Sequence record: MW822008.1
Length of the DNA stretch: 64,000 nt
Reading direction: 5' to 3' (one strand)
Source: Escherichia phage BF17
Positions within the stretch are counted from its first letter, which is position 1, and each line of letters starts with the position of its first letter. Shown here piece by piece: positions 23,754 through 47,083 of this stretch. The position numbers and the translations under genes are program-made. The notes beneath the pieces were generated by a model. It made no database searches and was not told where the DNA came from. It was given only the letters and a program-made list of their open reading frames with translations.

Positions 23754-23980
23754 AAATGATTAATTTAACTTACCATGAATATCAAAAACGTTTAAATGCA
23801 TCCAGAGATATAAGGATTCAAATATTCAATAACAAAAGATTGAAGCCTGATATCAGGAAAATCAAAATCATAGAAGCCGTGTTGTGCAACTTCCTAGGGA
23901 CTAACTATCAGGAAGGTAAGGTAGAAAACTATCTTATAGAACTCATGAATAGTATTGAAAATAAATGTAAGGGTAATTAA
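23750..23980 (+). CDS. family A paralog (FLGTNYQE)
   Basis: ATGA overlap. Confidence 0.65.
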   Translation: MKMINLTYHEYQKRLNASRDIRIQIFNNKRLKPDIRKIKIIEAVLCNFLGTNYQEGKVENYLIELMNSIENKCKGN

Positions 23981-23981
23981 C

Positions 23982-24221
23982 ATGAAAATGATTAAATTAT
24001 CTCAAGCAAAATATAAAGAACGCCTGGTAAAAATTGCACCTGGACTTAATGAAATCCATCACGGAGAAGTCATTAAACACGGAAATAAGATGATTATGAA
24101 ACTTGAGTTAAAGGTGGGTGCATTCATAGGAACAAACTATCAGGAGTATTATGTAGATGAATACATAATCGCACTTAAGAGATACATTGGAAGAAAACTA
24201 TATCTACAAACTAAAGAATAG
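23982..24221 (+). CDS. family A paralog (FIGTNYQE)
   Basis: internal ATG of ORF 23955; junction AAATGTAAGGGTAATTAACATG repeated at next gene. Confidence 0.6.
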   Translation: MKMIKLSQAKYKERLVKIAPGLNEIHHGEVIKHGNKMIMKLELKVGAFIGTNYQEYYVDEYIIALKRYIGRKLYLQTKE

Positions 24222-24250
24222 TATTGAAAATAAATGTAAGGGTAATTAAC

Positions 24251-24514
24251 ATGCAAATGATCAATTTAAGTAAAGATGAATATACCGAGCGTATGACAAA
24301 AATTACGCACAAACGTAATACAATCTATCACAACCCAGAAATTCAACACAGTAAGAAAATGATTATGATGCGTGAGTTAAAGATGGGTGTATTCTTAGGA
24401 ACAAACTATCAAGATACAGAAGTAAATCGCTTAATCGCGGAGTTGCTACTGGAAATCAGAGGTAAGCTGTACTTTCATCAAATGACCCAACCACTGAGGT
24501 GTACTAAGAAATGA
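24251..24514 (+). CDS. family A paralog (FLGTNYQD)
   Basis: internal ATG of ORF 24224; duplicated junction. Confidence 0.6.
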   Translation: MQMINLSKDEYTERMTKITHKRNTIYHNPEIQHSKKMIMMRELKMGVFLGTNYQDTEVNRLIAELLLEIRGKLYFHQMTQPLRCTKK

Positions 24515-29403: not shown

Positions 29404-29607
29404 ATGCAAAAGATTAATACGATAACATTAAATGCATTACAGGATTCATTATTAGATAGTATTAAGATGTATTACAATATACATTTGAAGGGTGGTATTG
29501 ATGATTACGATTATTATTTGAGTTTAATTACATTTGAGCACCTTTCAGTACAGGACAGGATTTTACATCCTACAAATCCTAGGTATCCATCGATAGGTAA
29601 ATTATGA
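29404..29607 (+). CDS. hypothetical protein (67 aa)
   Basis: ORF track. Confidence 0.5.
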   Translation: MQKINTITLNALQDSLLDSIKMYYNIHLKGGIDDYDYYLSLITFEHLSVQDRILHPTNPRYPSIGKL

Positions 29608-30158
29608 ATGAGATAGAGTTATTAGCACACAAGATAAGTACAATAATGCTTATCCTCAATAACAACCATCCTATATCGCAGATAGATGGAATCCTGAGTC
29701 AGAGGACAGGTGGTAGTTTATATTTGTCCATAAACGCAGATATCGCAAGGAAATACATTGATATTGACATTGATGTTGAAATCGAATATGATACAACGGG
29801 GATTGTTGGTGTAGGTGCATTAATCAGTTCAAATCCAGTATCAGCATCCCCATTGACCAAAGATGTTAGTACAGGATTCGAAGGGTATTTGTGGTACAAT
29901 ACCAATGATGATTATTTTATATATCAGCATTCCAATACAAATTATGATGAAGACAAATTTCAGTTCATAGACCCTTATGATGAAGCTGAAGTATTTCAAA
30001 AATCATTAATCACAAAACCGCATGAGATGATGTATCTAATTTTATTCAGTACAATGCATTTGAATCCATTAATTAAAGGTTTAAAATTTTATATTCAATT
30101 AAATTTAGTCCATGTAGTTTATGATTTATTAATGCAAGGATATAGTTATGAAGTATAA
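29604..30158 (+). CDS. family B-like paralog (EAEVFQKSLIT; C-terminal LIKGLKFYIQ)
   Basis: ATGA overlap; copy 1 of a tandem segmental duplication. Confidence 0.65.
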   Translation: MNEIELLAHKISTIMLILNNNHPISQIDGILSQRTGGSLYLSINADIARKYIDIDIDVEIEYDTTGIVGVGALISSNPVSASPLTKDVSTGFEGYLWYNTNDDYFIYQHSNTNYDEDKFQFIDPYDEAEVFQKSLITKPHEMMYLILFSTMHLNPLIKGLKFYIQLNLVHVVYDLLMQGYSYEV

Positions 30159-30230
30159 AATGAAGTATAAAATGATGTATACCCCAAGATATGATTTATG
30201 TTGAATTAGAAGATGATGCATCCATCAATA
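30148..30230 (+). pseudogene. truncated remnant of the 5' end of gene 30738 created by segmental duplication
   Basis: GGATATAGTTATGAAGTATAAAATGA...CCCCAAGATATGATTTATGTTGAATTAGAAGATGATG nearly identical to 30728-30800 with 1-nt insertion. Confidence 0.6.
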
Positions 30231-30241
30231 GGTAATAATAT

Positions 30242-30748
30242 ATGAATGAGATAGAATTATTAGCACACAAGATTAGTACAGTAATGCTTATGCTCAAGAA
30301 TAATCATTCTATGCATAAGTACATTTATATAGGTGATTTACGCATAGAAGATAGATATGATAAATTATCGTTTTTGTTTAAAGATGAAAGTAATGCAAAA
30401 GTTTGTTTTGCAGCATTTGCCCAAGGCAATCCAGAACAAGCATCTCCTGTTATATACGAAAATAGTGAAGGGTATTTGTGGGTCAACACAAACGATTATT
30501 TCTTTTATGATTTGAAACAAAATGATGAAGTAGAAGCACGAATTGATTTAATTGATATTAGTTCAGATTGTAGTTCTGAATTATTTCAGAAATCGTTATT
30601 ATACAGTCCTCGTCAAATACATTATCTAAAGTTATTCAGTTCATTGTACGCGAATCCTTTAATTAAGGGTTTTAAATTTTATATCAAAATTCCGTACCTT
30701 TCAAACGTTTATGATATTTTGATGCAAGGATATAGTTATGAAGTATAA
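30242..30748 (+). CDS. family B-like paralog (SSELFQKSLLY); copy 2 of duplication
   Basis: N-terminus MNEIELLAHKIST shared with 29604 gene. Confidence 0.65.
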   Translation: MNEIELLAHKISTVMLMLKNNHSMHKYIYIGDLRIEDRYDKLSFLFKDESNAKVCFAAFAQGNPEQASPVIYENSEGYLWVNTNDYFFYDLKQNDEVEARIDLIDISSDCSSELFQKSLLYSPRQIHYLKLFSSLYANPLIKGFKFYIKIPYLSNVYDILMQGYSYEV

Positions 30749-31049
30749 AATGATGTATACCCCAGATATGATTTATGTTGAATTAGAAGATGATGACGAT
30801 GGGTGGAATTTGATTTATTCAAGAAGTTCAGGTTGGTACATGGCACATTTAAATGATTCGATAGTTACAGATTATTTTGTAGATTTCAATACATTATCCG
30901 ATGAAGAATTGTTCCAACAGCAATTAGTGATTGACACGGGTGGTTATGATGTCTTATTATTAAAAAAGATACAGAAAGCTGTTATTGATTTTAAGCCCAT
31001 GATATGGCAAAGGAAATATTATGACCTCGAAGTACCGTACCAGCAATGA
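30738..31049 (+). CDS. family B paralog (DEELFQQQLVID)
   Basis: ORF track. Confidence 0.65.
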   Translation: MKYKMMYTPDMIYVELEDDDDGWNLIYSRSSGWYMAHLNDSIVTDYFVDFNTLSDEELFQQQLVIDTGGYDVLLLKKIQKAVIDFKPMIWQRKYYDLEVPYQQ

Positions 31050-31587
31050 TATTCAGTACACCTACGCTAATGCAATCCTTATGGGACAAAAGTTAGCTTG
31101 TATTGTTGCAGCCTTATATAATGCACAGAAAGATTACAAGCGTCACATCCACAAATGTATTGGTATTATTCCATCGAAGTACAATACATATATTACGTGC
31201 ACGAGTCATTTTGATAAACGATTCAATACACCTGATAACCCAAATGCCCGTAGTGTTATTGGTCTTTTGGATTTTGCCCCTGGGGCTGTTATTGGAAAGA
31301 ATGATTTAGAGTACGCATGGTATAATAAAAATTCCCCATTAGTAATGGTAACATATAATAAAGAAACGAACAAAACAATAGAGTACAATACATATAAATC
31401 AGAGGAAGAATTTTTCCAAGGTTCAATGCTTGTACCAGTGCGTTTGTTATTTTATAATGTCATAATGAGTACAGTACACAATAGTCCATTACACAAGAAT
31501 CACAAAATTAATTTCAATTTTTGTGCTTATGCGATTGATGGTGTTTATGAGTGCTTAATGGAGATATTGAGTTATGAAGCTGAATAA
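31021..31587 (+). CDS. family B paralog (EEEFFQGSMLV)
   Basis: ORF track. Confidence 0.6.
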   Translation: MTSKYRTSNDIQYTYANAILMGQKLACIVAALYNAQKDYKRHIHKCIGIIPSKYNTYITCTSHFDKRFNTPDNPNARSVIGLLDFAPGAVIGKNDLEYAWYNKNSPLVMVTYNKETNKTIEYNTYKSEEEFFQGSMLVPVRLLFYNVIMSTVHNSPLHKNHKINFNFCAYAIDGVYECLMEILSYEAE

Positions 31588-36400: not shown

Positions 36401-36556
36401 TTCCGCTGAAAAACATGCTAAGGTATATGTTTAATATAAAGTTTTATATTGTGTTTTTTCAGAGTACAGTTCATGTTTCTTGAAACAAAAAATACCCCGC
36501 CGCCGAACGTTCTCCTTATATTGGAGTTTACCTTATTAATTATAGTAGAGATTAAG

Positions 36557-36934
36557 ATGGAAATAAAATATAATGAATTTTGTGCAAGGACATGGATGTA
36601 CACTGGTGAGTTAGTTACGCACTCTAACTTATACAAGGGTGATTTAAACTACGCTAGGGACAAGATTTTAAAGTACTGGAATGCTGACTTTTATTTGATG
36701 GATTTTAGTACTGGGTTTAGGGGTAAAGCAACCGAGATGTTGGACTATACAGTACTTGATGATTCTGCACTGTTTCAGGCGGCATTAGTATTTGATAAGA
36801 AGTACATCTGTACATTAGAAGAGATGATTGAATTACAGCGTAGAATTAAATGTATTCACAGGGAATGTATAGATATCTGGTGCAGTACTGGTGAAGATGA
36901 TTTTTGTAATCATTTCAATCTAGGGGAAGTGTGA
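36557..36934 (+). CDS. family B paralog (DSALFQAALVFD)
   Basis: internal ATG 36557 of ORF 36449; start uncertain. Confidence 0.55.
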   Translation: MEIKYNEFCARTWMYTGELVTHSNLYKGDLNYARDKILKYWNADFYLMDFSTGFRGKATEMLDYTVLDDSALFQAALVFDKKYICTLEEMIELQRRIKCIHRECIDIWCSTGEDDFCNHFNLGEV

Positions 36935-36936
36935 TG

Positions 36937-37095
36937 GAATTTGATTTTTTAATATCAGTACATTCTTTTAAGCACAGTTATCAGTACTTTTGTAATTTAA
37001 ACAAAGGTGATTTGATTATGGATACAGATACAGAGGCTGTATACAGTTCTAATATTCTGTACAAATTCAGTACTAATCTGAAGGAGATTTTATGA
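36937..37095 (+). pseudogene. duplicated 5' fragment of gene 37463 (truncated copy, 52 aa ORF)
   Basis: 36937-37030 nearly identical to 37463-37550 (ATGGAATTTGATTTTTTAATATCAGTACAT...). Confidence 0.55.
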
Positions 37096-37463
37096 AAAAA
37101 GAAATTAGAATTCAATTCGGTATGAGGAAAAGAGAGGTCATCTGTACACTGAATCATGCGGTCGTGGAAAGCCTTGGTGGTGCATTACAAAAATTCTCCC
37201 ATTTTGTTCTTGTACTATATGAAAATGGGTCTTTTAAAATCTTCACATATGATGATTCAAAAAATTACCGTAATGATTTTGTAAATCTGACAGTACTGTC
37301 AGAAGAGGAATTCTTTCAGGAAAGTACTGTCTGGAATTTACCAGGAGCACCAATTGAATACGTCCGTGCTACACAGGCAGAAATGATCAAAGTAATGCAG
37401 AACTATCCAGAAGATTATATGACTAAGTTTCCTGAATCTATTTATGTAGAGGTTGAGTACTGA
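37092..37463 (+). CDS. family B paralog (EEEFFQESTVWN)
   Basis: RBS AAGGAG. Confidence 0.65.
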   Translation: MKKEIRIQFGMRKREVICTLNHAVVESLGGALQKFSHFVLVLYENGSFKIFTYDDSKNYRNDFVNLTVLSEEEFFQESTVWNLPGAPIEYVRATQAEMIKVMQNYPEDYMTKFPESIYVEVEY

Positions 37464-37819
37464 TGGAATTTGATTTTTTAATATCAGTACATACTTTCAA
37501 GCACAGTTATCAGTACTTTTGTAATTTAAACAAAGGTGATTTAATGCACAGTGCAAATGAGTATATTCATTACACTCAGGGTAAATTTACATTCATTGAT
37601 TACAGTTCATTACAGTATCCACACCAAGATATGCCGGACTATACATTAATGGATACCGCAGAACTATTCCAAGAATCATTAGTATTTGATAAGAAGTACT
37701 TGTGTACATTTGAAGAAGTTATTGCAATACAAAATGAAATGAAAGAGTATGCTGCTTTGCATAAACCCAATGCAAGTATTAATCAAGAATACAAATTCAA
37801 TTTAGGAATTCAAGAATGA
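37463..37819 (+). CDS. family B paralog (TAELFQESLVFD)
   Basis: ORF track. Confidence 0.65.
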   Translation: MEFDFLISVHTFKHSYQYFCNLNKGDLMHSANEYIHYTQGKFTFIDYSSLQYPHQDMPDYTLMDTAELFQESLVFDKKYLCTFEEVIAIQNEMKEYAALHKPNASINQEYKFNLGIQE

Positions 37820-38175
37820 CATATGATTATTCTATGTACTATTATAAGTTACCTAAAGGATGGGACTTGTGCTGTAATCTTATTAAGGGCGACTCGGAAC
37901 ATGAGTTGAGTTTATATATGCATTACAAAGATTCTTGTTTTAAATTTATTCATGTATCACATGACGACTATGACTATGAATCTGAGAGTCTTATAGATTA
38001 TACAGTACTGGACGATGGTGAACTATTTCAGGCTGCATTAGTGTTTGATAAGAATAAGTACTCCTGTACATTTGAAGAAATGGTTTCTTTGCAAAATGAA
38101 ATGAAGAGATTTGAAAAAGAAAACGTATTTAATCCATCCCCATCAAGAACGAATAATTATTATTTCAATATATGA
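37816..38175 (+). CDS. family B paralog (DGELFQAALVFD)
   Basis: ATGA overlap. Confidence 0.65.
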   Translation: MTYDYSMYYYKLPKGWDLCCNLIKGDSEHELSLYMHYKDSCFKFIHVSHDDYDYESESLIDYTVLDDGELFQAALVFDKNKYSCTFEEMVSLQNEMKRFEKENVFNPSPSRTNNYYFNI

Positions 38176-38184
38176 GATTATAAA

Positions 38185-38676
38185 ATGACATTACAGAGTT
38201 CATTGGAAAAAGCAAAGAAGATTCATGAGTACATGAATATGGCAAAAGAAGGTTCAGTTTACGGTGTTTTCAAAGACACAAGTACTCAATATTATGTACC
38301 GGATAACCTCCTTTATAATGACTGCTCAGATACAGAAACGTGCGTACTGGATACAGAAACGTGCATACTAGATACCGACCCTAATGATTATGAATGCTTC
38401 ATTAATATGCATAATGAGTACATGGTCTATATTAATGATACAGATACCATCAACAGTACTGACAGCGATTCCAATGACATTATAATTCCGAGTGAAGTAC
38501 TGGAAGGTCCGTGGGATAGTGAAGAGTATTACTTCCAACAAAGTACTGTATATGATAATGAAGTACTTGATGTTATTATAATTATGTGGTACTTTAAAAG
38601 TATTGGTTCTGGGAACTTCTATTTCGATTACAAATACGTAAAGAAAACTGTAGATAACGGTATTAACAGGGGTTGA
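38185..38676 (+). CDS. family B2 paralog (SEEYYFQQSTVYD); contains 21-bp internal tandem repeat
   Basis: GATACAGAAACGTGC(G/A)TACT(G/A) x2 at about 38322-38363. Confidence 0.65.
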   Translation: MTLQSSLEKAKKIHEYMNMAKEGSVYGVFKDTSTQYYVPDNLLYNDCSDTETCVLDTETCILDTDPNDYECFINMHNEYMVYINDTDTINSTDSDSNDIIIPSEVLEGPWDSEEYYFQQSTVYDNEVLDVIIIMWYFKSIGSGNFYFDYKYVKKTVDNGINRG

Positions 38677-38677
38677 A

Positions 38678-39148
38678 ATGAGTTTAGAAAGAGCATTAGA
38701 GATTGCGAAGTTAATTGATTTATGCAGCAAAGAAATTGTAGCAAATTGTCTTAATGGATATCTATTCAAGGAAGGTAAATCATATTGTCGAATGAGATAC
38801 GATGACAGTAGTGAGTACATTCACATGTATGAAGAAAACTTAGATTCTTCTGAAACAACACTCAATGGGTGTGATGTTAATTTGGAAGATAATTACATGT
38901 ACTTCTGTCGTGATGCTGATATTTTAATACAAGATTCTGACATTATATCTGGTGCAGCAGAGAAACATCTTCCGTATTCAGTACTGGATAATGACTGGGG
39001 AAGTGAAGAGTACTACTTCCAGCAGAATACTATCTACGAGGAAGATGTACTTGACAAGCTTGTCATTCTGTGGTACTTTAATAATACAGATTGTCCTAGC
39101 TTCTATTTGGACTTGGATCTACTACGAGTTATTAAAGAGGATATATGA
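38678..39148 (+). CDS. family B2 paralog (SEEYYFQQNTIYE)
   Basis: N-terminus MSLERALEIAK. Confidence 0.65.
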   Translation: MSLERALEIAKLIDLCSKEIVANCLNGYLFKEGKSYCRMRYDDSSEYIHMYEENLDSSETTLNGCDVNLEDNYMYFCRDADILIQDSDIISGAAEKHLPYSVLDNDWGSEEYYFQQNTIYEEDVLDKLVILWYFNNTDCPSFYLDLDLLRVIKEDI

Positions 39149-39588
39149 GTTTAGCAAGTGCACTTGAACTAGCACACAGAATACATCACTTCCACGATAA
39201 CATAAAAAGTGGGTTCTATGGTGATAAAGTAAGTGCATTTGGTGATGAGTATTATCTATCAGGTATAAAGACATACTCTGATGATATTTTACTTATGGGA
39301 CAGGATAAAGACAATACTATACAGTACTCTTCATGTAGTCAATATACTAATTTTTTTGTATATATTCCAGGTACTAAGATTACTTTTGACACAACAAATA
39401 CACCTGTTGACTTCGGGGTACTTGATGGCCAGTGGGGTACTGAAGAGTATTACTTCCAACAGAGTCTCATTTTTAACCAAGAAATTCTTGATTCCTTGGT
39501 TGTGTTGTGGTACTTTAAGGAATTGAATTTTGAACCATTCTTTCTTGACTGGGGAGCATGTGAATATTTAAGTACAGGGGATTTGTAA
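39145..39588 (+). CDS. family B2 paralog (TEEYYFQQSLIFN)
   Basis: ATGA overlap. Confidence 0.65.
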   Translation: MSLASALELAHRIHHFHDNIKSGFYGDKVSAFGDEYYLSGIKTYSDDILLMGQDKDNTIQYSSCSQYTNFFVYIPGTKITFDTTNTPVDFGVLDGQWGTEEYYFQQSLIFNQEILDSLVVLWYFKELNFEPFFLDWGACEYLSTGDL

Positions 39589-40076
39589 TGTCATTACAAA
39601 GTGCATTGAAAGAAGCAAAGAAGATTCATGAGTACATGATTATGGTACAGGAAGGTTCAGTACCAGGTGTATATAAAACATCTGATACTGAATTTTTTGT
39701 AAAAGACCGTGACGATTATGACGAGTCCGAGATATGTGCAGAAACATTAGTACTGCACACTGATACTGGTGACAGTGATAACTGTGAATATCATATGTAC
39801 AATCAGTACATTAGTTATTGTCGTAATGAAGATATTACCATCTACAACACAGATAGTGATGCTGATGACACTATCATTCCTTATTCAGTACTGGAAGGAC
39901 CGTGGGATAGTGAAGAATATTACTTCCAGAATAGTACGTTGTACAATGAAGAAGAATTAGATGTTATTGTAATTATGTGGTATTTCAAAAGTATTGACTC
40001 CAGTAGTTTCTATTTTGATTATGAATATGTAGAGAATACTGTAGGAGAAGGTAATGTCATTACAAAGTGCTCTTGA
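39588..40076 (+). CDS. family B2 paralog (SEEYYFQNSTLYN)
   Basis: close paralog of 38185 gene. Confidence 0.65.
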   Translation: MSLQSALKEAKKIHEYMIMVQEGSVPGVYKTSDTEFFVKDRDDYDESEICAETLVLHTDTGDSDNCEYHMYNQYISYCRNEDITIYNTDSDADDTIIPYSVLEGPWDSEEYYFQNSTLYNEEELDVIVIMWYFKSIDSSSFYFDYEYVENTVGEGNVITKCS

Positions 40077-40506
40077 AAAAGCAAAAGAACTACATGGATA
40101 CTTTGACGATATAAAGGCAGGAAAGTTCAAAGAAGTGTACAAAGCCGAGAACGGCAACTACTACAAGGATGAAATGTATAATAACTCCGTTGGTGTAAGG
40201 GTTATTCTTGGGTTGAATTCCAATAGTCCTATATCGTTTTCTGAATACAATAGAGATGCAGAATTTATTAGTTATGTTGAAAATGGTAGCATTCGTTTTA
40301 TTAATCGCAAAAAACCATTAATTTTGAATTATGAAGTACTGGAAGGTCCGTGGGATAGTGAAGAGTATTACTTCCAAAACAGTACTGTTTACGATGATGA
40401 AGTACTTGAAGCATTAGTTATTATGTGGTACTTAAAGAGTGTTAACTGTCCTCGATTTTATTTGGATTTCGAAGAACTTCGTAAAGATCCAGAAGGTATA
40501 GAATGA
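40054..40506 (+). CDS. family B2 paralog (SEEYYFQNSTVYD)
   Basis: ORF track. Confidence 0.65.
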   Translation: MSLQSALEKAKELHGYFDDIKAGKFKEVYKAENGNYYKDEMYNNSVGVRVILGLNSNSPISFSEYNRDAEFISYVENGSIRFINRKKPLILNYEVLEGPWDSEEYYFQNSTVYDDEVLEALVIMWYLKSVNCPRFYLDFEELRKDPEGIE

Positions 40507-40817: not shown

Positions 40818-41125
40818 TGACTAAAAATGAATTTGATTCACTTTGTACGGTTTATAATTCATTAACAGAAATACCTGACTTTATTAATTACATTTCAGCT
40901 TTAAATCAAATTATGCATAGTTTTGAACAATCGTTTGAAGAGAAATATGCTGGTAGAAAAGTTCTATGTCATATGTCAATGTACTTAGGAGATGGTGAGC
41001 CTTACACTACAAGTACTACATGTGAAATAAAAAAATATAATATATTATTGGGGACAATAGAATTCACAGTATCCAATGGTGGTAGTTATATGTACTTTAG
41101 AGATGGAGTGGTTGAATTATTATGA
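40817..41125 (+). CDS. hypothetical protein (102 aa)
   Basis: ORF track. Confidence 0.5.
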   Translation: MTKNEFDSLCTVYNSLTEIPDFINYISALNQIMHSFEQSFEEKYAGRKVLCHMSMYLGDGEPYTTSTTCEIKKYNILLGTIEFTVSNGGSYMYFRDGVVELL

Positions 41126-41571
41126 GTTACGAAAGTGCAATCAAGAAAGCAAATGATATTCTACGCGTCGTTAAATTCTTCAAAGAAAATCCTGAATACT
41201 TAGCTGATGAAAACCATGATCACGATGAGAGATTGAGACGAAAAATTGTCGCTTTATTTGACACTAATGCGGATAATTATAGTCTAATTGAGTTAGCATA
41301 CGATTATATTTCATTGAACCGAAACGGCAATATAGTTAATATAGAAAGACATGCAACTGAAGAATCTTTTAAAATTTCAGATATTTTATCCCTGAGTACT
41401 GAAGAAGGGTACTTCCAGGGTAGTACTGTTTATGAACAAGGGACACTTGACAATCTATGCACATTCAGTGTAATATATCAGAAATCTGTACTAGATGTAT
41501 TTTATCTTGACACTGCTGAACTGGATACACTAACCAATTTTGTTACTACTGAAGAGGCTACATTCGAGTGA
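41122..41571 (+). CDS. family B2-like paralog (TEEGYFQGSTVYE)
   Basis: ATGA overlap. Confidence 0.65.
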   Translation: MSYESAIKKANDILRVVKFFKENPEYLADENHDHDERLRRKIVALFDTNADNYSLIELAYDYISLNRNGNIVNIERHATEESFKISDILSLSTEEGYFQGSTVYEQGTLDNLCTFSVIYQKSVLDVFYLDTAELDTLTNFVTTEEATFE

Positions 41572-42104
41572 TGAAAGTTAACATCAATGACTTTGATGCA
41601 TTACAAGATTTATCAAAAAAGATTCGCACCATTGTACCAGTACTCAAAAAATGCAGTACTGGTTTAATCGATCCTAGTACTGTTGTTAATGAGAAGTACA
41701 ATTTTCATTATGTATTACAGGGTACTGGGGCATTCCAGAAGTGTGAGGTGCGTGAGACACACGTAATTGATACATCATTGTTTTCTATTGGTGCACCTGT
41801 GTCGAATAATACTATTTTCCTAGACAACGCTGGAAATATTCAACAATTAACATTTAAGAAAAGGAAAAAGAACAATAACATTGGTGTGTATGCGATGAAG
41901 TGGGGGCAACCTGATTTGAAGCGTGAAATTCACATCCCTAAGTACAATTACAATGCATTTGACGAACAGTGTTTTCAACTATCGTGTACTGACCCTGACT
42001 ATGCTATCATTCAGTTCTATATGGAATTGCAGATTGCATTTAACAGTAATTTGTATATTAACTTATTGGCGATGAACATCGATGAAGTATTCAAAAACAT
42101 TTAA
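41568..42104 (+). CDS. family B-like paralog (DEQCFQLSCTD)
   Basis: ATGA overlap. Confidence 0.55.
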   Translation: MMKVNINDFDALQDLSKKIRTIVPVLKKCSTGLIDPSTVVNEKYNFHYVLQGTGAFQKCEVRETHVIDTSLFSIGAPVSNNTIFLDNAGNIQQLTFKKRKKNNNIGVYAMKWGQPDLKREIHIPKYNYNAFDEQCFQLSCTDPDYAIIQFYMELQIAFNSNLYINLLAMNIDEVFKNI

Positions 42105-42300
42105 TCGAATTGAATACATGAGAACTGTGAGTGCAGTGTGGGACATATGGTTCACTACTAAACCAAAAATGGATTACCATGACTTTAAGCTCTTGTTCTT
42201 CGTTGGCTCTAACAAACAGGATGTTGCAATGAAGGGTTATATTCAGCACTTACAGGAACTAATCCAGAAGAGAATATATGAAAATAATAGACCAAAATGA
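42082..42300 (+). CDS. family A-like paralog (FVGSNKQD)
   Basis: ORF track. Confidence 0.55.
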   Translation: MKYSKTFNRIEYMRTVSAVWDIWFTTKPKMDYHDFKLLFFVGSNKQDVAMKGYIQHLQELIQKRIYENNRPK

Positions 42301-42469
42301 CATTGCTAAACTATTCAATATATATTCTACTAGAATGATGCAAACAGACTCATATAGTACTGAATTCAAAGAGTTGAAAGTACTGATGTACTTAGGAACC
42401 CAATACCAAGAACAAGTTATTTTAGAATATATTAATTCGTTGAAGAAGGATATCCGTTATGTACGATGA
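42278..42469 (+). CDS. family A-like paralog (YLGTQYQE)
   Basis: ORF track. Confidence 0.6.
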   Translation: MKIIDQNDIAKLFNIYSTRMMQTDSYSTEFKELKVLMYLGTQYQEQVILEYINSLKKDIRYVR

Positions 42470-43019
42470 TTTAGATCTTGCGTTTGAACGTATGGTAATT
42501 TTAATGCAATGTGCAGAAATGCATGAAACAATCCGTCGCACCAAAGGGATTGAATATACAAGTAAACTATTCTCATACGAAAGTCGTCGAGGGATGGATC
42601 ATTTTTACTGCACTGATTGTTCAAAGTTTTCAGTACTGAAATATTATCATCCTACTGTTTCCAATAATAGTTTAATATCCACATATGACGGTGTTCTGTT
42701 TAGTGTAATGTATGACACATTACATCCATCAATTTCAATCTATAAAGATTGCGATAGTAGTTTATCGTATATAATTGAAGATTACTTATCTCCTAATACT
42801 GAAGAGAATATTTTTCAGAACAGTGTGTTGCATGATGAATTAAGCATAAAATGCATCTATATGTTCAATAAGTTAAAAGAGTACGCCGATAATAATTACT
42901 TAATTGATAAGTTAGCAGTATTGTCTGTTTCCGTTTTTAATACAAATGACATTGATATGAAATACTATAATGAGATTTGTAAAGTACATCATATGTATAA
43001 GGAACTATTATGTCAATAA
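42459..43019 (+). CDS. family B paralog (EENIFQNSVLHD)
   Basis: ORF track. Confidence 0.6.
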   Translation: MYDDLDLAFERMVILMQCAEMHETIRRTKGIEYTSKLFSYESRRGMDHFYCTDCSKFSVLKYYHPTVSNNSLISTYDGVLFSVMYDTLHPSISIYKDCDSSLSYIIEDYLSPNTEENIFQNSVLHDELSIKCIYMFNKLKEYADNNYLIDKLAVLSVSVFNTNDIDMKYYNEICKVHHMYKELLCQ

Positions 43020-43612
43020 ATGCAAATAAATGTTGTAGTGCAGATGTGCATTTGTTTTTTAAGAAATTAGCAAATGATATTATATATATGCAGGAAATGA
43101 TTTATCACAAACGAGCGGATTTAGAAAAAGCATTAGTACAGTTCTCATTTATGCTTGATGGTGATATATTTCTAGAGAGTGATGCATTGCGAATAGTATT
43201 AGACAAAAATGCTAAAAGATTTTTATTTCATATAGATAATAAATTATGTTCCTCCGTATGTCGTACTTTTTATAATCGTGATTCGGACTTATATCAATTC
43301 CTTTATTCTAAAGGTGCAGTAGAAGCATCATATGGTGATGGTTATGCCCTAGGAAAGAGTATTCCATTTATGAAATCATTTAAAATAGAACACATCAGTA
43401 CTGATGAAGATGCAATGTTCACAAATGATATAACTATGGGACGTGAAGATGCAATGCGATATATTACAAATTCTATGCATACATTCTTTCAACGAACAGA
43501 ATTTGATAATGTATATATATCAAATGTAAATATTTTCAATGACCTGTGTCAGTACTTGAGAAGTGTTTGTGATTTTGATGAAAGCTATTGTAAGCTTTAT
43601 ACTGAGGTATAA
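43010..43612 (+). CDS. hypothetical protein (200 aa), weak family B resemblance
   Basis: ORF track. Confidence 0.55.
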   Translation: MSINANKCCSADVHLFFKKLANDIIYMQEMIYHKRADLEKALVQFSFMLDGDIFLESDALRIVLDKNAKRFLFHIDNKLCSSVCRTFYNRDSDLYQFLYSKGAVEASYGDGYALGKSIPFMKSFKIEHISTDEDAMFTNDITMGREDAMRYITNSMHTFFQRTEFDNVYISNVNIFNDLCQYLRSVCDFDESYCKLYTEV

Positions 43613-43617
43613 AACAA

Positions 43618-43980
43618 ATGAACACATTAAGTATTACATACTATACAACTAAAAAATTAGTTACTTGTTTAATATCATTGAAGACAAATCATGATGATAT
43701 GTTTGATATGGCTGCATATGAATTAGAATTATCAGAAGATGGCTTCAAGAGCTATGAAGTATATAGCTATGTTCGTGAAGATGTAATTGACACTACACTA
43801 ATGCAAGAGGATGAGTTATTCCAAGAAAGTTTAGTATGGGATAATAAGTACGATTGTAACTTTGATTTCTTATGTTTAATCCAGAAAGAAATGAAAAGAA
43901 TCTTTGATAATTATCCAGTGAAGAGATTGAGTACTGGACCGGAGCAGTACAGGAGAATTTTATTCCGTTATGAAGACTGA
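43618..43980 (+). CDS. family B paralog (EDELFQESLVWD)
   Basis: ORF track. Confidence 0.65.
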   Translation: MNTLSITYYTTKKLVTCLISLKTNHDDMFDMAAYELELSEDGFKSYEVYSYVREDVIDTTLMQEDELFQESLVWDNKYDCNFDFLCLIQKEMKRIFDNYPVKRLSTGPEQYRRILFRYED

Positions 43981-44305
43981 ATTAGTGAAAGTAATGTACG
44001 CTACTCATATTAAACTACTACTTGTGAAATTTGATTATAATAAAAAACATAATGATTTCTATACTTTAATTCGTGATGAAAATACATTCTCCTTGCGATG
44101 CAACAATATACCGTTGAAGATAAATGATTTTACTTCACTTGACGAGGGTGAATTATTTCAAGAATCATTAGTTTTTAATAGTAATATAAAAATTGATATA
44201 GAAGTTATTAAAAAATACCAGATTTTATTGAACAAAATTATGAATTGTTATCCATGTGAAATAGGTGGTCATATGCAGTTCAAATCAAAAATGTATGAAT
44301 TATGA
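43970..44305 (+). CDS. family B paralog (EGELFQESLVFN)
   Basis: ORF track. Confidence 0.65.
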   Translation: MKTELVKVMYATHIKLLLVKFDYNKKHNDFYTLIRDENTFSLRCNNIPLKINDFTSLDEGELFQESLVFNSNIKIDIEVIKKYQILLNKIMNCYPCEIGGHMQFKSKMYEL

Positions 44306-44312
44306 GGTTTAT

Positions 44313-44849
44313 ATGTTAGATGAAAAAATGAACAATGGAACACAATATAATCATCTTAAGTTAGATACATTCGAATCAGCTATCAGTACTGCACAAGATA
44401 TAATTGATATTATCAAGTTCATTAAAGAAAATAAGTTCAAATGTTTGAAAATACTAAATCGTTCAATGTACCGTGATAACAATATTCATGTATCAGTACG
44501 TAGACCGAAAGATAAAGAAAGTGGGAGAGATTTCTATAACAACAGTGAGCAGTTCGAATGTGAATATGATCCAGAATTCAGAGGCGGTTTCATGTGTTAC
44601 TGTATAAAGGATACCTCACACATTGAGATACGTTCATCGAAAGGTGGCATACGTACATTAGAGTTCATTGATATAGTTTTAAATCAGGAATACTACTTTC
44701 AACTATCATTGTTGTTTCCTGCATACGATTTAGGAGTTCTATTCATGTATAAGTACTTTTATGAGCACTGGAATGAAGACTTCTATCTGGACTTAGAAGA
44801 TTACCAATTAGTTTGGAAAGAAATGGTAGAACTTCGCAACCCATCTTGA
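44313..44849 (+). CDS. family B2-like paralog (NQEYYFQLSLLF)
   Basis: ATG 44313 with RBS GAGG 44304-44307; track start 44265 overlaps upstream gene. Confidence 0.6.
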   Translation: MLDEKMNNGTQYNHLKLDTFESAISTAQDIIDIIKFIKENKFKCLKILNRSMYRDNNIHVSVRRPKDKESGRDFYNNSEQFECEYDPEFRGGFMCYCIKDTSHIEIRSSKGGIRTLEFIDIVLNQEYYFQLSLLFPAYDLGVLFMYKYFYEHWNEDFYLDLEDYQLVWKEMVELRNPS

Positions 44850-44855
44850 CACCCT

Positions 44856-44909
44856 CCGATTCTTTGTGATATAATCTCTTTATATTAATTGTAAAGGGTT
44901 ATATCACAA
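44856..44909 (+). promoter_or_regulatory. Promoter with extended -10 (TGaTATAAT) inside inverted repeat TTGTGATATAA...TTATATCACAA
   Basis: TTGACA 44856-44861, TATAAT 44880-44885; 11-bp arms; GATTCTT(T)GTGATATAAT motif recurs at 57905. Confidence 0.55.
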
Positions 44910-45385
44910 TGTCCAAAGACCTATCATTTAGCAATGCACAAAAAATAGCAAAAGACATTATCAGGGTTTATAAATTCCTTGCGAATGTTACTGAAGATTT
45001 TTTCGTGGGGGAACATAAAGTTATTAAACGAAATGGATACCTTTCCTTTATGGATGGGTTACTCTATAGTTCAGATGAATCAACTTGTAGCATTAGAGTA
45101 CTTGATGAAGTACCAAGTGGTGATTTTATTTCATACCATTTTCCAAGTTCAGATAATTTCAAATACTACAATCATCTTCTTATAAATGAAGCATTTGATA
45201 CGATTGTAATTAACACTGAAGAAGAGTTCTTCCAGTACAGTACTGTGTATCCAGAGAGGATTGTTTTCAGTTCAGTGATTTACACTGCCCTTAAAAATGA
45301 ACTAAATTCCGATAGTGATCATTACTACTTGGACCTGAACAATGTCGATTGTATTATTGAGTACATGGAGAAAAATGGTTTATGA
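44909..45385 (+). CDS. family B2-like paralog (EEEFFQYSTVYP)
   Basis: ORF track. Confidence 0.65.
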   Translation: MSKDLSFSNAQKIAKDIIRVYKFLANVTEDFFVGEHKVIKRNGYLSFMDGLLYSSDESTCSIRVLDEVPSGDFISYHFPSSDNFKYYNHLLINEAFDTIVINTEEEFFQYSTVYPERIVFSSVIYTALKNELNSDSDHYYLDLNNVDCIIEYMEKNGL

Positions 45386-45876
45386 TTACTACAGAATATG
45401 ATTACTATGGTGTTTTAGAATTTACAGAAAATATCTATCGCATTGCAAAGGAGTTCAGAAGTCCTAAGCCTTTTGGTGGTATGTTTCAATACGATGAGTT
45501 CAGTTCATCTAAAGGAAGACTAGCATTTACTAATGTTAGAGGTAATCAAATCTACGCGGAGTACTTTGATGATAATGACTTTCATTACAAAGCCGAATAC
45601 ATTTCATATTGCCCTGGGTCTGATTTGAAGATTAATATTGATACCTTTAGAGATTCAGTGCTTGTCCCTTATAGTGAGTTAGTTTTCATGACAGAAGAAA
45701 TGTACTTTCAAGAGTCTTGTATTCATGATGTAAAAGTACTTAATGCTATGTTATTTTATGGTGCACTACTTCATCATTACAAATACAAACAACGATTCTT
45801 TTTAGATTTAGTAGTATACTATAAATGCGTGGATTATTTGAATGCAAAATACGACAACAATTCAGTACATGACTGA
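45382..45876 (+). CDS. family B paralog (EEMYFQESCIHD)
   Basis: ATGA overlap. Confidence 0.65.
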   Translation: MITTEYDYYGVLEFTENIYRIAKEFRSPKPFGGMFQYDEFSSSKGRLAFTNVRGNQIYAEYFDDNDFHYKAEYISYCPGSDLKINIDTFRDSVLVPYSELVFMTEEMYFQESCIHDVKVLNAMLFYGALLHHYKYKQRFFLDLVVYYKCVDYLNAKYDNNSVHD

Positions 45877-46204
45877 TGGTACTGAATACTTTGTTTCAAG
45901 ATATGTAATCAACCACAACCATTATGTAACCTATATTCCAGAGTACAATCAATTTTATATCCAGATTTATCAAAATAATGGAAAGATAAATGATATATAT
46001 TCAGAAATAAAAATCCCTGATTATAGTACTTTATCAGAAGAGGAATTATTTCAGGAGAGCACTATCAGTACTGAAGATGTGTACGAAATAATGGAATACC
46101 AGAAGGTACTTAAACATTTTCATGAAGCAAATGATATACAAATCGATATTGTTAAACCGTGGTGTTACAATACATATGAGGTAAATTATGTTAGAAATGA
46201 TTAA
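45842..46204 (+). CDS. family B paralog (EEELFQESTIS)
   Basis: ORF track; true start may be ATG 45869. Confidence 0.6.
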   Translation: MQNTTTIQYMTDGTEYFVSRYVINHNHYVTYIPEYNQFYIQIYQNNGKINDIYSEIKIPDYSTLSEEELFQESTISTEDVYEIMEYQKVLKHFHEANDIQIDIVKPWCYNTYEVNYVRND

Positions 46205-46601
46205 AATTATGCAACGCTGTCTTGTTGATCAACACGGGGTATATGGATATCGTTTAAGTGCTCCTATTGACAAAAATAAAACAACCTATGTAAGCTATAA
46301 TGCTGTACAAGGATTTGATATATTCATTAGTACTAATTATCAAATCAAACAAGCGAAAGATGTGTCTATAATGACCCCTGATGAGTTATTTCAGTACAGC
46401 TTAGTCTTTCCTACATGTATCGATTTACAACGTCTAGGAGCGATACAGAAGGTTTTACGCGAACATAAAGTACAACCCAATAAAGTCACACACATTCCAG
46501 AAACAATCTTCAAAACCATAGAAGTAGAAACTCCTGATTATATGTTAAGTGATGATGAGTACTACGAGAAACACTTCCCTGGTAAAGTTTGGAGAGACTA
46601 A
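46188..46601 (+). CDS. family B paralog (PDELFQYSLVFP)
   Basis: ORF track. Confidence 0.65.
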   Translation: MLEMIKIMQRCLVDQHGVYGYRLSAPIDKNKTTYVSYNAVQGFDIFISTNYQIKQAKDVSIMTPDELFQYSLVFPTCIDLQRLGAIQKVLREHKVQPNKVTHIPETIFKTIEVETPDYMLSDDEYYEKHFPGKVWRD

Positions 46602-47083
46602 TGAACCGAAAGTACAGAGAAACTATGAAGTTCGCTAAGGAGTGTTTAGAGACAGTTGATTTCATTTTCGATAACAAAGACTCACTGGGTCATCACTTCG
46701 TAATTACAAAGAAAGAAGATAAGAGATACAAGTGTGAAAGATTAGGATACAGTATTGAGTTCTCCTTAATGATTGATGGAATGATAAACTCCTTATATGA
46801 ATGTGGTAAGACTGATTACCTTTCATTTAGATCATGGAGTGAAGGTATCATGTTCTTGAGAACAAATGGAGTTTTATATCCGTTTCTTGATGATTTATCA
46901 GAAGAAAGTTACTTTCAAAATAGTTTAATTTACACAGAAAAAGAACTCAAAATGCTATTCATTATGTCGTACTTTAAAAAGTACTGCAAATTTAATACAT
47001 TATCTTTTGAGATTTCTGCAATGAAAGTATTCATTAAAAATGTAAAAGAATTAAAGAGGGCTTTTAATGTACATAGAAAATGA
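46589..47083 (+). CDS. family B2 paralog (EESYFQNSLIYT)
   Basis: ORF track. Confidence 0.65.
   Translation: MERLMNRKYRETMKFAKECLETVDFIFDNKDSLGHHFVITKKEDKRYKCERLGYSIEFSLMIDGMINSLYECGKTDYLSFRSWSEGIMFLRTNGVLYPFLDDLSEESYFQNSLIYTEKELKMLFIMSYFKKYCKFNTLSFEISAMKVFIKNVKELKRAFNVHRK

Follow-up and report, generated by a model that had tools for sequence, protein, structure and literature searches.

A gene of an Escherichia jumbo phage carries, inside its coding sequence, a 21-base unit written twice in a row, which raises the question of whether the site is a contingency-type variable region, as suggested by the original prediction, or an ordinary duplication that the gene tolerates. The window, that is the whole stretch of DNA analyzed (64,000 nucleotides of Escherichia phage BF17, record MW822008.1), is from an Asteriusvirus jumbo coliphage, and over 2.8 kb around the repeat it is 99.8% identical to G17, SHEFM2K, and Sharanji, 98% to PBECO4, and 94% to 121Q. 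Its GC content is 34%, its + strand carries 108 of the 111 non-overlapping ORFs of at least 80 aa, and the ORFs include nine paralog families. Searches of the window for tRNAs and against Rfam gave no match. The features on which the analysis relies are the following.

38185-38676, + strand: host gene of the repeat, encoding an acidic protein of 163 aa (pI 4.05) of family phrog_9317 (profile match, E 6.5e-64)
38329-38349, + strand: repeat copy 1, GATACAGAAACGTGCGTACTG, encoding DTETCVL (residues 49-55), exact match
38350-38370, + strand: repeat copy 2, GATACAGAAACGTGCATACTA, encoding DTETCIL (residues 56-62), absent from one-copy alleles
38371-38375, + strand: GATAC echo, a partial third unit (the 0.3 copy of TRF)
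38678-39148, 39145-39588, 39588-40076, and 40054-40506, + strand: paralogs 2-5 of the adjacent array (38678-40506), with a single unit or no recognizable unit at the homologous position
41122-41571, 45382-45876, and 46601-47083, + strand: three more, dispersed paralogs (span 41122-47083), from blastp clustering of the window ORFs

The repeat and the gene that carries it

The two copies are adjacent and identical at 19 of 21 positions, the longest uninterrupted identity being 15 bases in the window allele; copy 2 departs from copy 1 by a G>A change that replaces Val by Ile and by a silent G>A change. The repeat is aligned with the codons, beginning 144 bases (48 codons) into the ORF 38185-38676 (+), and TRF reports it at 38328-38375 with a period of 21, 2.3 copies, 88% matches, and a score of 82. 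An in-frame repeat of 42 bp had been described here, and we recovered both its adjacent 21-mers and the encoded DTETCVL-DTETCIL, but the coordinates given for it, 38322-38363, lie 7 bases too far left, the stretch at those positions actually reading CTGCTCAGATAC...GAAACGTG (also given as CTGCTCAG...GAAACGTG). Its description as a small internal duplication is borne out, as we found a seven-codon in-frame duplication whose unduplicated state is seen in single-copy orthologs and in paralogs.

When up to three mismatches were allowed, the 21-mer matched the 64 kb at the two adjacent sites only, and 100 shuffles gave no match. Tandem pairs with a period of 21-60 and at most two mismatches are expected by chance about 2.6e-4 times in 64 kb of the same composition. 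A looser test with periods of 15-60 and at most two mismatches gave 0.17 expected pairs per window, a value driven by period 15, and the period-specific calculation was used instead. The 21-base repeat is not due to chance. Two other roles were considered for it and rejected. A diversity-generating retroelement or another templated hypervariation was discarded since the 64 kb contain no template copy, the 21-mer (at most three mismatches) being found at the two adjacent sites only. A regulatory or RNA role was set aside in view of the absence of dispersed copies of the 21-mer, of a promoter or terminator excess, of RNA structure (z = -0.04), and of any Rfam match in the window.

Orthologs of the host gene are G17_00555, phAPEC6 gp442c, and 121Q gp370. 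The gene comes first in a head-to-tail row of five paralogs (38185-40506), out of eight in the whole window. Residues 1-161 of its product align with positions 1-158 of the 160 of the phrog_9317 profile, to which each of the eight paralogs gives a full-length match (E 1e-55 to 1e-66). Seven of the eight are acidic (pI 4.05-5.06) and the eighth, 46601-47083, is basic (pI 8.92). No match to the host gene product was found in Pfam or NCBIfam, and a sequence-profile search of the PDB returned no relative. A profile search run exhaustively against 1.84 billion representative proteins yielded only 30 relatives, and the structural neighbors obtained from BFVD were all uncharacterized proteins, from 121Q, SP27, RaK2, GAP32, Serratia phage BF, and Yersinia phage fHe-Yen9-03. 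The phrog_9317 family, known from Rak2-like and Asteriusvirus jumbo phages, is small, acidic, and lineage-restricted.

Two properties of this gene bear on how a change in its length is to be read. First, the phAPEC6 virion proteome, in which 62 proteins were detected, contains no gp4xx member (PMC7247149, Table 1), and the product of the host gene is therefore most likely non-structural. Second, the syntenic slot of the gene is occupied by a different small gene pair in ph0011 and fEgEco12, and the gene is truncated in SD-1_S14 (P0015), indicating that this paralog is dispensable; several other records (H24, H26-H32) match only from the next paralog onward.

Copy number among isolates and its history

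Copy number was compared in 27 orthologous DNA sequences, namely the window, 19 phage records, 2 metagenome contigs, and 5 assemblies obtained via a protein search. The repeat is not invariant across isolates, the comparison that had been proposed as a check: two copies are present in 19 of the 27 sequences and exactly one in the other 8, and none of the 27 has zero copies or three or more. Each of the eight one-copy alleles shows a clean 21-base gap at exactly the repeat site, and the ORF is intact in both length classes. A pattern scan of IMG/VR for more alleles returned 121Q only, the GTDB genome contigs gave 0 matches, and the complete E. coli genomes gave no match. Three metagenome contigs have two copies, and because their accessions form one series they probably come from one project. 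The 21-base length separates Asteriusvirus isolates that are otherwise near-identical, for example JP4 and G17.

Such a difference could be produced by mis-assembly or by a sequencing artefact affecting either the duplicated or the single-copy state. Nothing specific speaks for it beyond the unverified flag or the draft status of some records. The array, with its 42 bases, is far below the read lengths used, and its copies differ, making collapse or expansion by an assembler unlikely; moreover, one-copy and two-copy alleles each turn up many times in records that are independent in laboratory, platform, and country, and they differ every time by a clean 21 bases. We consider an artefact extremely improbable.

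The four most basal lineages (A4, SRR21187690, ERZ15610127, and UE-S1) have one copy, and the aligned paralogs have at the repeat position a single ET(C/L)VL unit or none, which makes one copy the ancestral state. Derived substitutions of copy 2 are shared among two-copy alleles, namely CATACTA in the window type, TGT in the PBECO4/121Q/SP27 type, and an extra ACA in CRJP21 and slurp01. These shared differences point to a single origin of the duplication, followed by divergence.

Four further one-copy alleles are nested in the two-copy crown (JP4, GCA036254115, GCA031701365, and GCA958334435). The JP4 gene has only 2 substitutions outside the repeat relative to the window gene, yet it has one copy, and it belongs to a 14-member clade with 99% bootstrap support, all other members of which are two-copy. 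The right-flank haplotype of GCA036254115 is that of phAPEC6. Fitch parsimony on 200 bootstrap gene trees required 4-6 state changes, with a mode of 5. From this distribution it seems that the state changed repeatedly by loss and/or recombination, the nested changes being read as losses. A homoplasy of 4-6 steps exceeds what a once-only event would give, so that either the site is mutationally hotter than average or its alleles have been moved by recombination.

The second of these possibilities can be taken further, in that the scatter of one-copy alleles could reflect the recombination of short patches between co-infecting Asteriusvirus phages, with one gain and perhaps one loss. The table of informative sites indeed reveals mosaic haplotypes within the 490-base gene, for example in GCA958334435, whose left flank resembles that of 121Q and whose right flank is mixed, and in a block common to mgOEQX and CRJP21, and the phages are also mosaic in gene content across the same region. 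However, JP4 and GCA036254115 agree with their two-copy neighbors at almost every informative site, left and right of the repeat, which would restrict any recombined patch to a very short stretch centered on the repeat; in addition, the one-copy units are not the same, some ending in CTG and others in CTA. We regard the exchange of patches as a rather unlikely source of the whole scatter.

The unit of GCA958334435, GTGCGTACTA, is chimeric, with the 5' part of copy 1 and the 3' end of copy 2, as would be expected to remain after an out-of-register exchange between the two copies. A point against the explanation proposed below is the unit retained in JP4, which is copy 1 completely. A JP4 parent of the window type would require an exchange inside the 5-base GATAC; a parent of the SP27 type, which is an assumed parentage, would account for the unit more easily.

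A proposed origin by slippage

In the one-copy alleles of A4, UE-S1, and JP4, the unit is bracketed by a direct repeat of 5-6 bases, GATAC (AGATAC in A4), in the arrangement ...CAGATACAGAAACGTGCGTACT(A/G)GATACCGAC.... Short direct repeats that bracket a unit are the classic starting point of a tandem duplication, created when replication slips by one unit or by unequal exchange. We therefore propose the following course of events. The ancestral allele would have contained one unit, GATACAGAAACGTGCGTACT(G/A), followed by GATAC. Through the 5-6 bases of direct microhomology provided by (A)GATAC, the nascent strand could have paired again one unit back, with the result that 21 bases were copied twice. 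The copies would then have diverged by one to three substitutions. Once formed, the 21-base direct repeat would itself be a substrate for deletion, and one-copy alleles would reappear on two-copy backbones.

Taken as a whole, the repeat is very probably a seven-codon, in-frame tandem duplication of the slippage (or unequal-exchange) type, located in a non-structural, dispensable, lineage-specific gene of jumbo phages; slippage as the mechanism is what we infer from the arrangement of the bases. Short direct repeats give rise, by replication slippage or by unequal exchange, to in-frame tandem duplications and coding minisatellites (VNTR), a class that includes the RecA-independent deletion of tandem repeats in E. 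coli and, in phage T4, deletions that run from one short direct repeat to another. The repeat studied here resembles coding slippage indels in its head-to-tail order, in its unit that is a multiple of three, in alleles that differ by whole units, and in the microhomology at its junction, as well as in the chimeric unit of one presumed deletion product and in the insertion into a predicted loop that tolerates length changes. Unlike a multi-allelic VNTR, it has two states only, one and two copies, and is better described as a duplication/deletion dimorphism, for which the mechanism is deduced from sequence.

Tandem duplication is also known in jumbo phages at a larger scale. In 121Q and phage G, more than 30 similar genes stand in an array that was explained by the duplication of genes in tandem (Hua et al. 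2017, PMC5646251), and such arrays were noted in phAPEC6 too (PMC7247149). The host gene is a member of such an array, and the repeat has in common with these arrays the duplication and deletion between direct repeats, here at the size of 21 bases. The published arrays of 121Q and phAPEC6 are whole-gene duplications, whereas the present repeat is intragenic and seven codons long. The Asteriusvirus literature that we searched mentions the tandem gene arrays and not the 21-base repeat.

The predicted loop and the question of contingency

The structures of the two alleles were predicted with AF2, giving a pLDDT of 85.1 and a pTM of 0.83 for the two-copy allele and a pLDDT of 89.8 and a pTM of 0.85 for the one-copy allele (P0004). 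Both models contain the same elements, a helix at residues 3-22, a small sheet, and C-terminal helices with the invariant W-EE-YFQ and WY motifs. In the one-copy model, strand 51-56 is followed by a turn of 7 residues and strand 64-67, the mean pLDDT of residues 61-70 being 85; in the two-copy model, strand 51-56 is followed by a loop of 14 residues and strand 71-74, and the mean pLDDT of the same residues is 54. Copy 1 makes up most of the predicted beta-strand 51-56 of the two-copy model (pLDDT of block 51-60, 85). The second heptad is thus predicted to extend a surface hairpin loop of about 7 residues, directly after the strand, to one of about 14, leaving the fold unchanged. Since the predicted fold is unchanged, the extra heptad is probably tolerated and near-neutral. 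The loop segment is also the most length-variable part of the protein, and an acidic one, in the paralog alignment (A1).

These models bear on the reading of the repeat as a contingency region, in which a hypermutable tract would toggle within populations and alter a target-binding loop, thereby pre-adapting the phage to variable hosts or defenses. Contingency loci, as in Haemophilus and Neisseria, rely on phase variation of simple sequence repeats, and the present site resembles them in being a coding-region repeat whose copy number differs between isolates, with 4-6 state changes, some of them between near-identical backbones. It also belongs to a gene of a tandemly amplified, fast-diverging, acidic family and lies in the most variable segment of that family. 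Unlike these loci, it has neither a long perfect tract nor a switch of reading frame or promoter: the unit of 21 bases preserves the frame, so that no on/off switching results and both alleles encode a full-length protein, with the same predicted fold. The two copies are imperfect and three or more were found in 0 of the 27 sequences, while the one to three substitutions between copies are common to many isolates, which indicates that the array is not rapidly homogenized or turned over. Copy number has no obvious tie to the recorded host either, the phages of O157:H7 showing both states. The label of contingency-type is therefore not supported by two imperfect copies that never reach three, keep the frame, are predicted to leave the fold as it is, and have changed 4-6 times genus-wide; we consider a contingency function very unlikely.

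A related idea is that the phrog_9317 array encodes diversifying host-takeover or anti-defense proteins, whose acidic hairpin loop recognizes a target, and that the recurrent change of seven residues is selected and tunes specificity. We hold this to be highly improbable; if it were true, the repeat would be a low-copy, in-frame 'contingency' indel in a jumbo phage. All that we examined agrees with an ordinary slippage product that is tolerated in a loop of a dispensable paralog. Being an in-frame duplication of the textbook kind, in a gene that the phage can do without, the repeat in itself matters little, and it would gain interest only with real hypermutability or with a difference in phenotype between alleles. 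Besides its modest use as a length marker of isolates, it singles out, in an uncharacterized multigene family, the hairpin loop that follows strand 51-56 as the part that tolerates length changes and changes fastest, where a binding surface would be sought if these proteins were studied.

Other length variants and repeats

Several further observations were made on the gene and its surroundings. Two more in-frame length polymorphisms exist among the orthologs of the repeat gene (L004, L010, L012, L013, L017, L020, and L030), a 3-base indel near residue 87 (INDTD-TI versus INDADITI) and a C-terminal extension of 9 bases (NKLHRG or NKPHGG) found in A4 and SRR21187690. In SHEFM2K (L005) and SD-6_S16 (L007), at locus positions 386-877, as well as for proteins P0005-P0007, the gene is annotated from an internal ATG (Met-17/19; 138-147 aa). 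The DNA of these records is identical to that of the 163-aa records, indicating an inconsistency of annotation and not a difference in sequence. An antisense ORF of 150 aa (38368-38820, - strand) overlaps the repeat gene and the next paralog, and is probably spurious given the strand bias of the window (108 of 111 ORFs on the + strand).

Paralogs of a second family, phrog_15629 (118-161 aa, motif LFQ(A/E)(A/S)LVFDKKY), occupy 36473-38175, directly upstream of the phrog_9317 array, and 43618-43980. An extra member of this family fills the slot of the repeat gene in ph0011 and fEgEco12. Whole-gene tandem amplification is exemplified elsewhere in the window by seven ORFs of one family between 22402 and 26280, and a tandem repeat at 23923-24411, with a period of 269 bases, 1.8 copies, and 77% identity, coincides with small paralogous genes that lie side by side.

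Two shorter arrays were also noted. At 806-914, about 12 units of 8 bases (GGCTAGAC / GGCTAAAC / GGCTAGAT) stand head to tail, for which TRF also gives periods of 24 and 32. This array is non-coding, with no ORF of at least 30 aa across 600-1000, and it resembles an iteron array of the protein-binding or origin/regulatory type. At 30148-30181, a 12-base tandem repeat (ATGAAGTATAAA, 2.8 copies, 95% matches) lies at the boundary of two genes of a three-gene paralog family (29604-31587); it contains an ATG, and may therefore represent a duplicated gene start.
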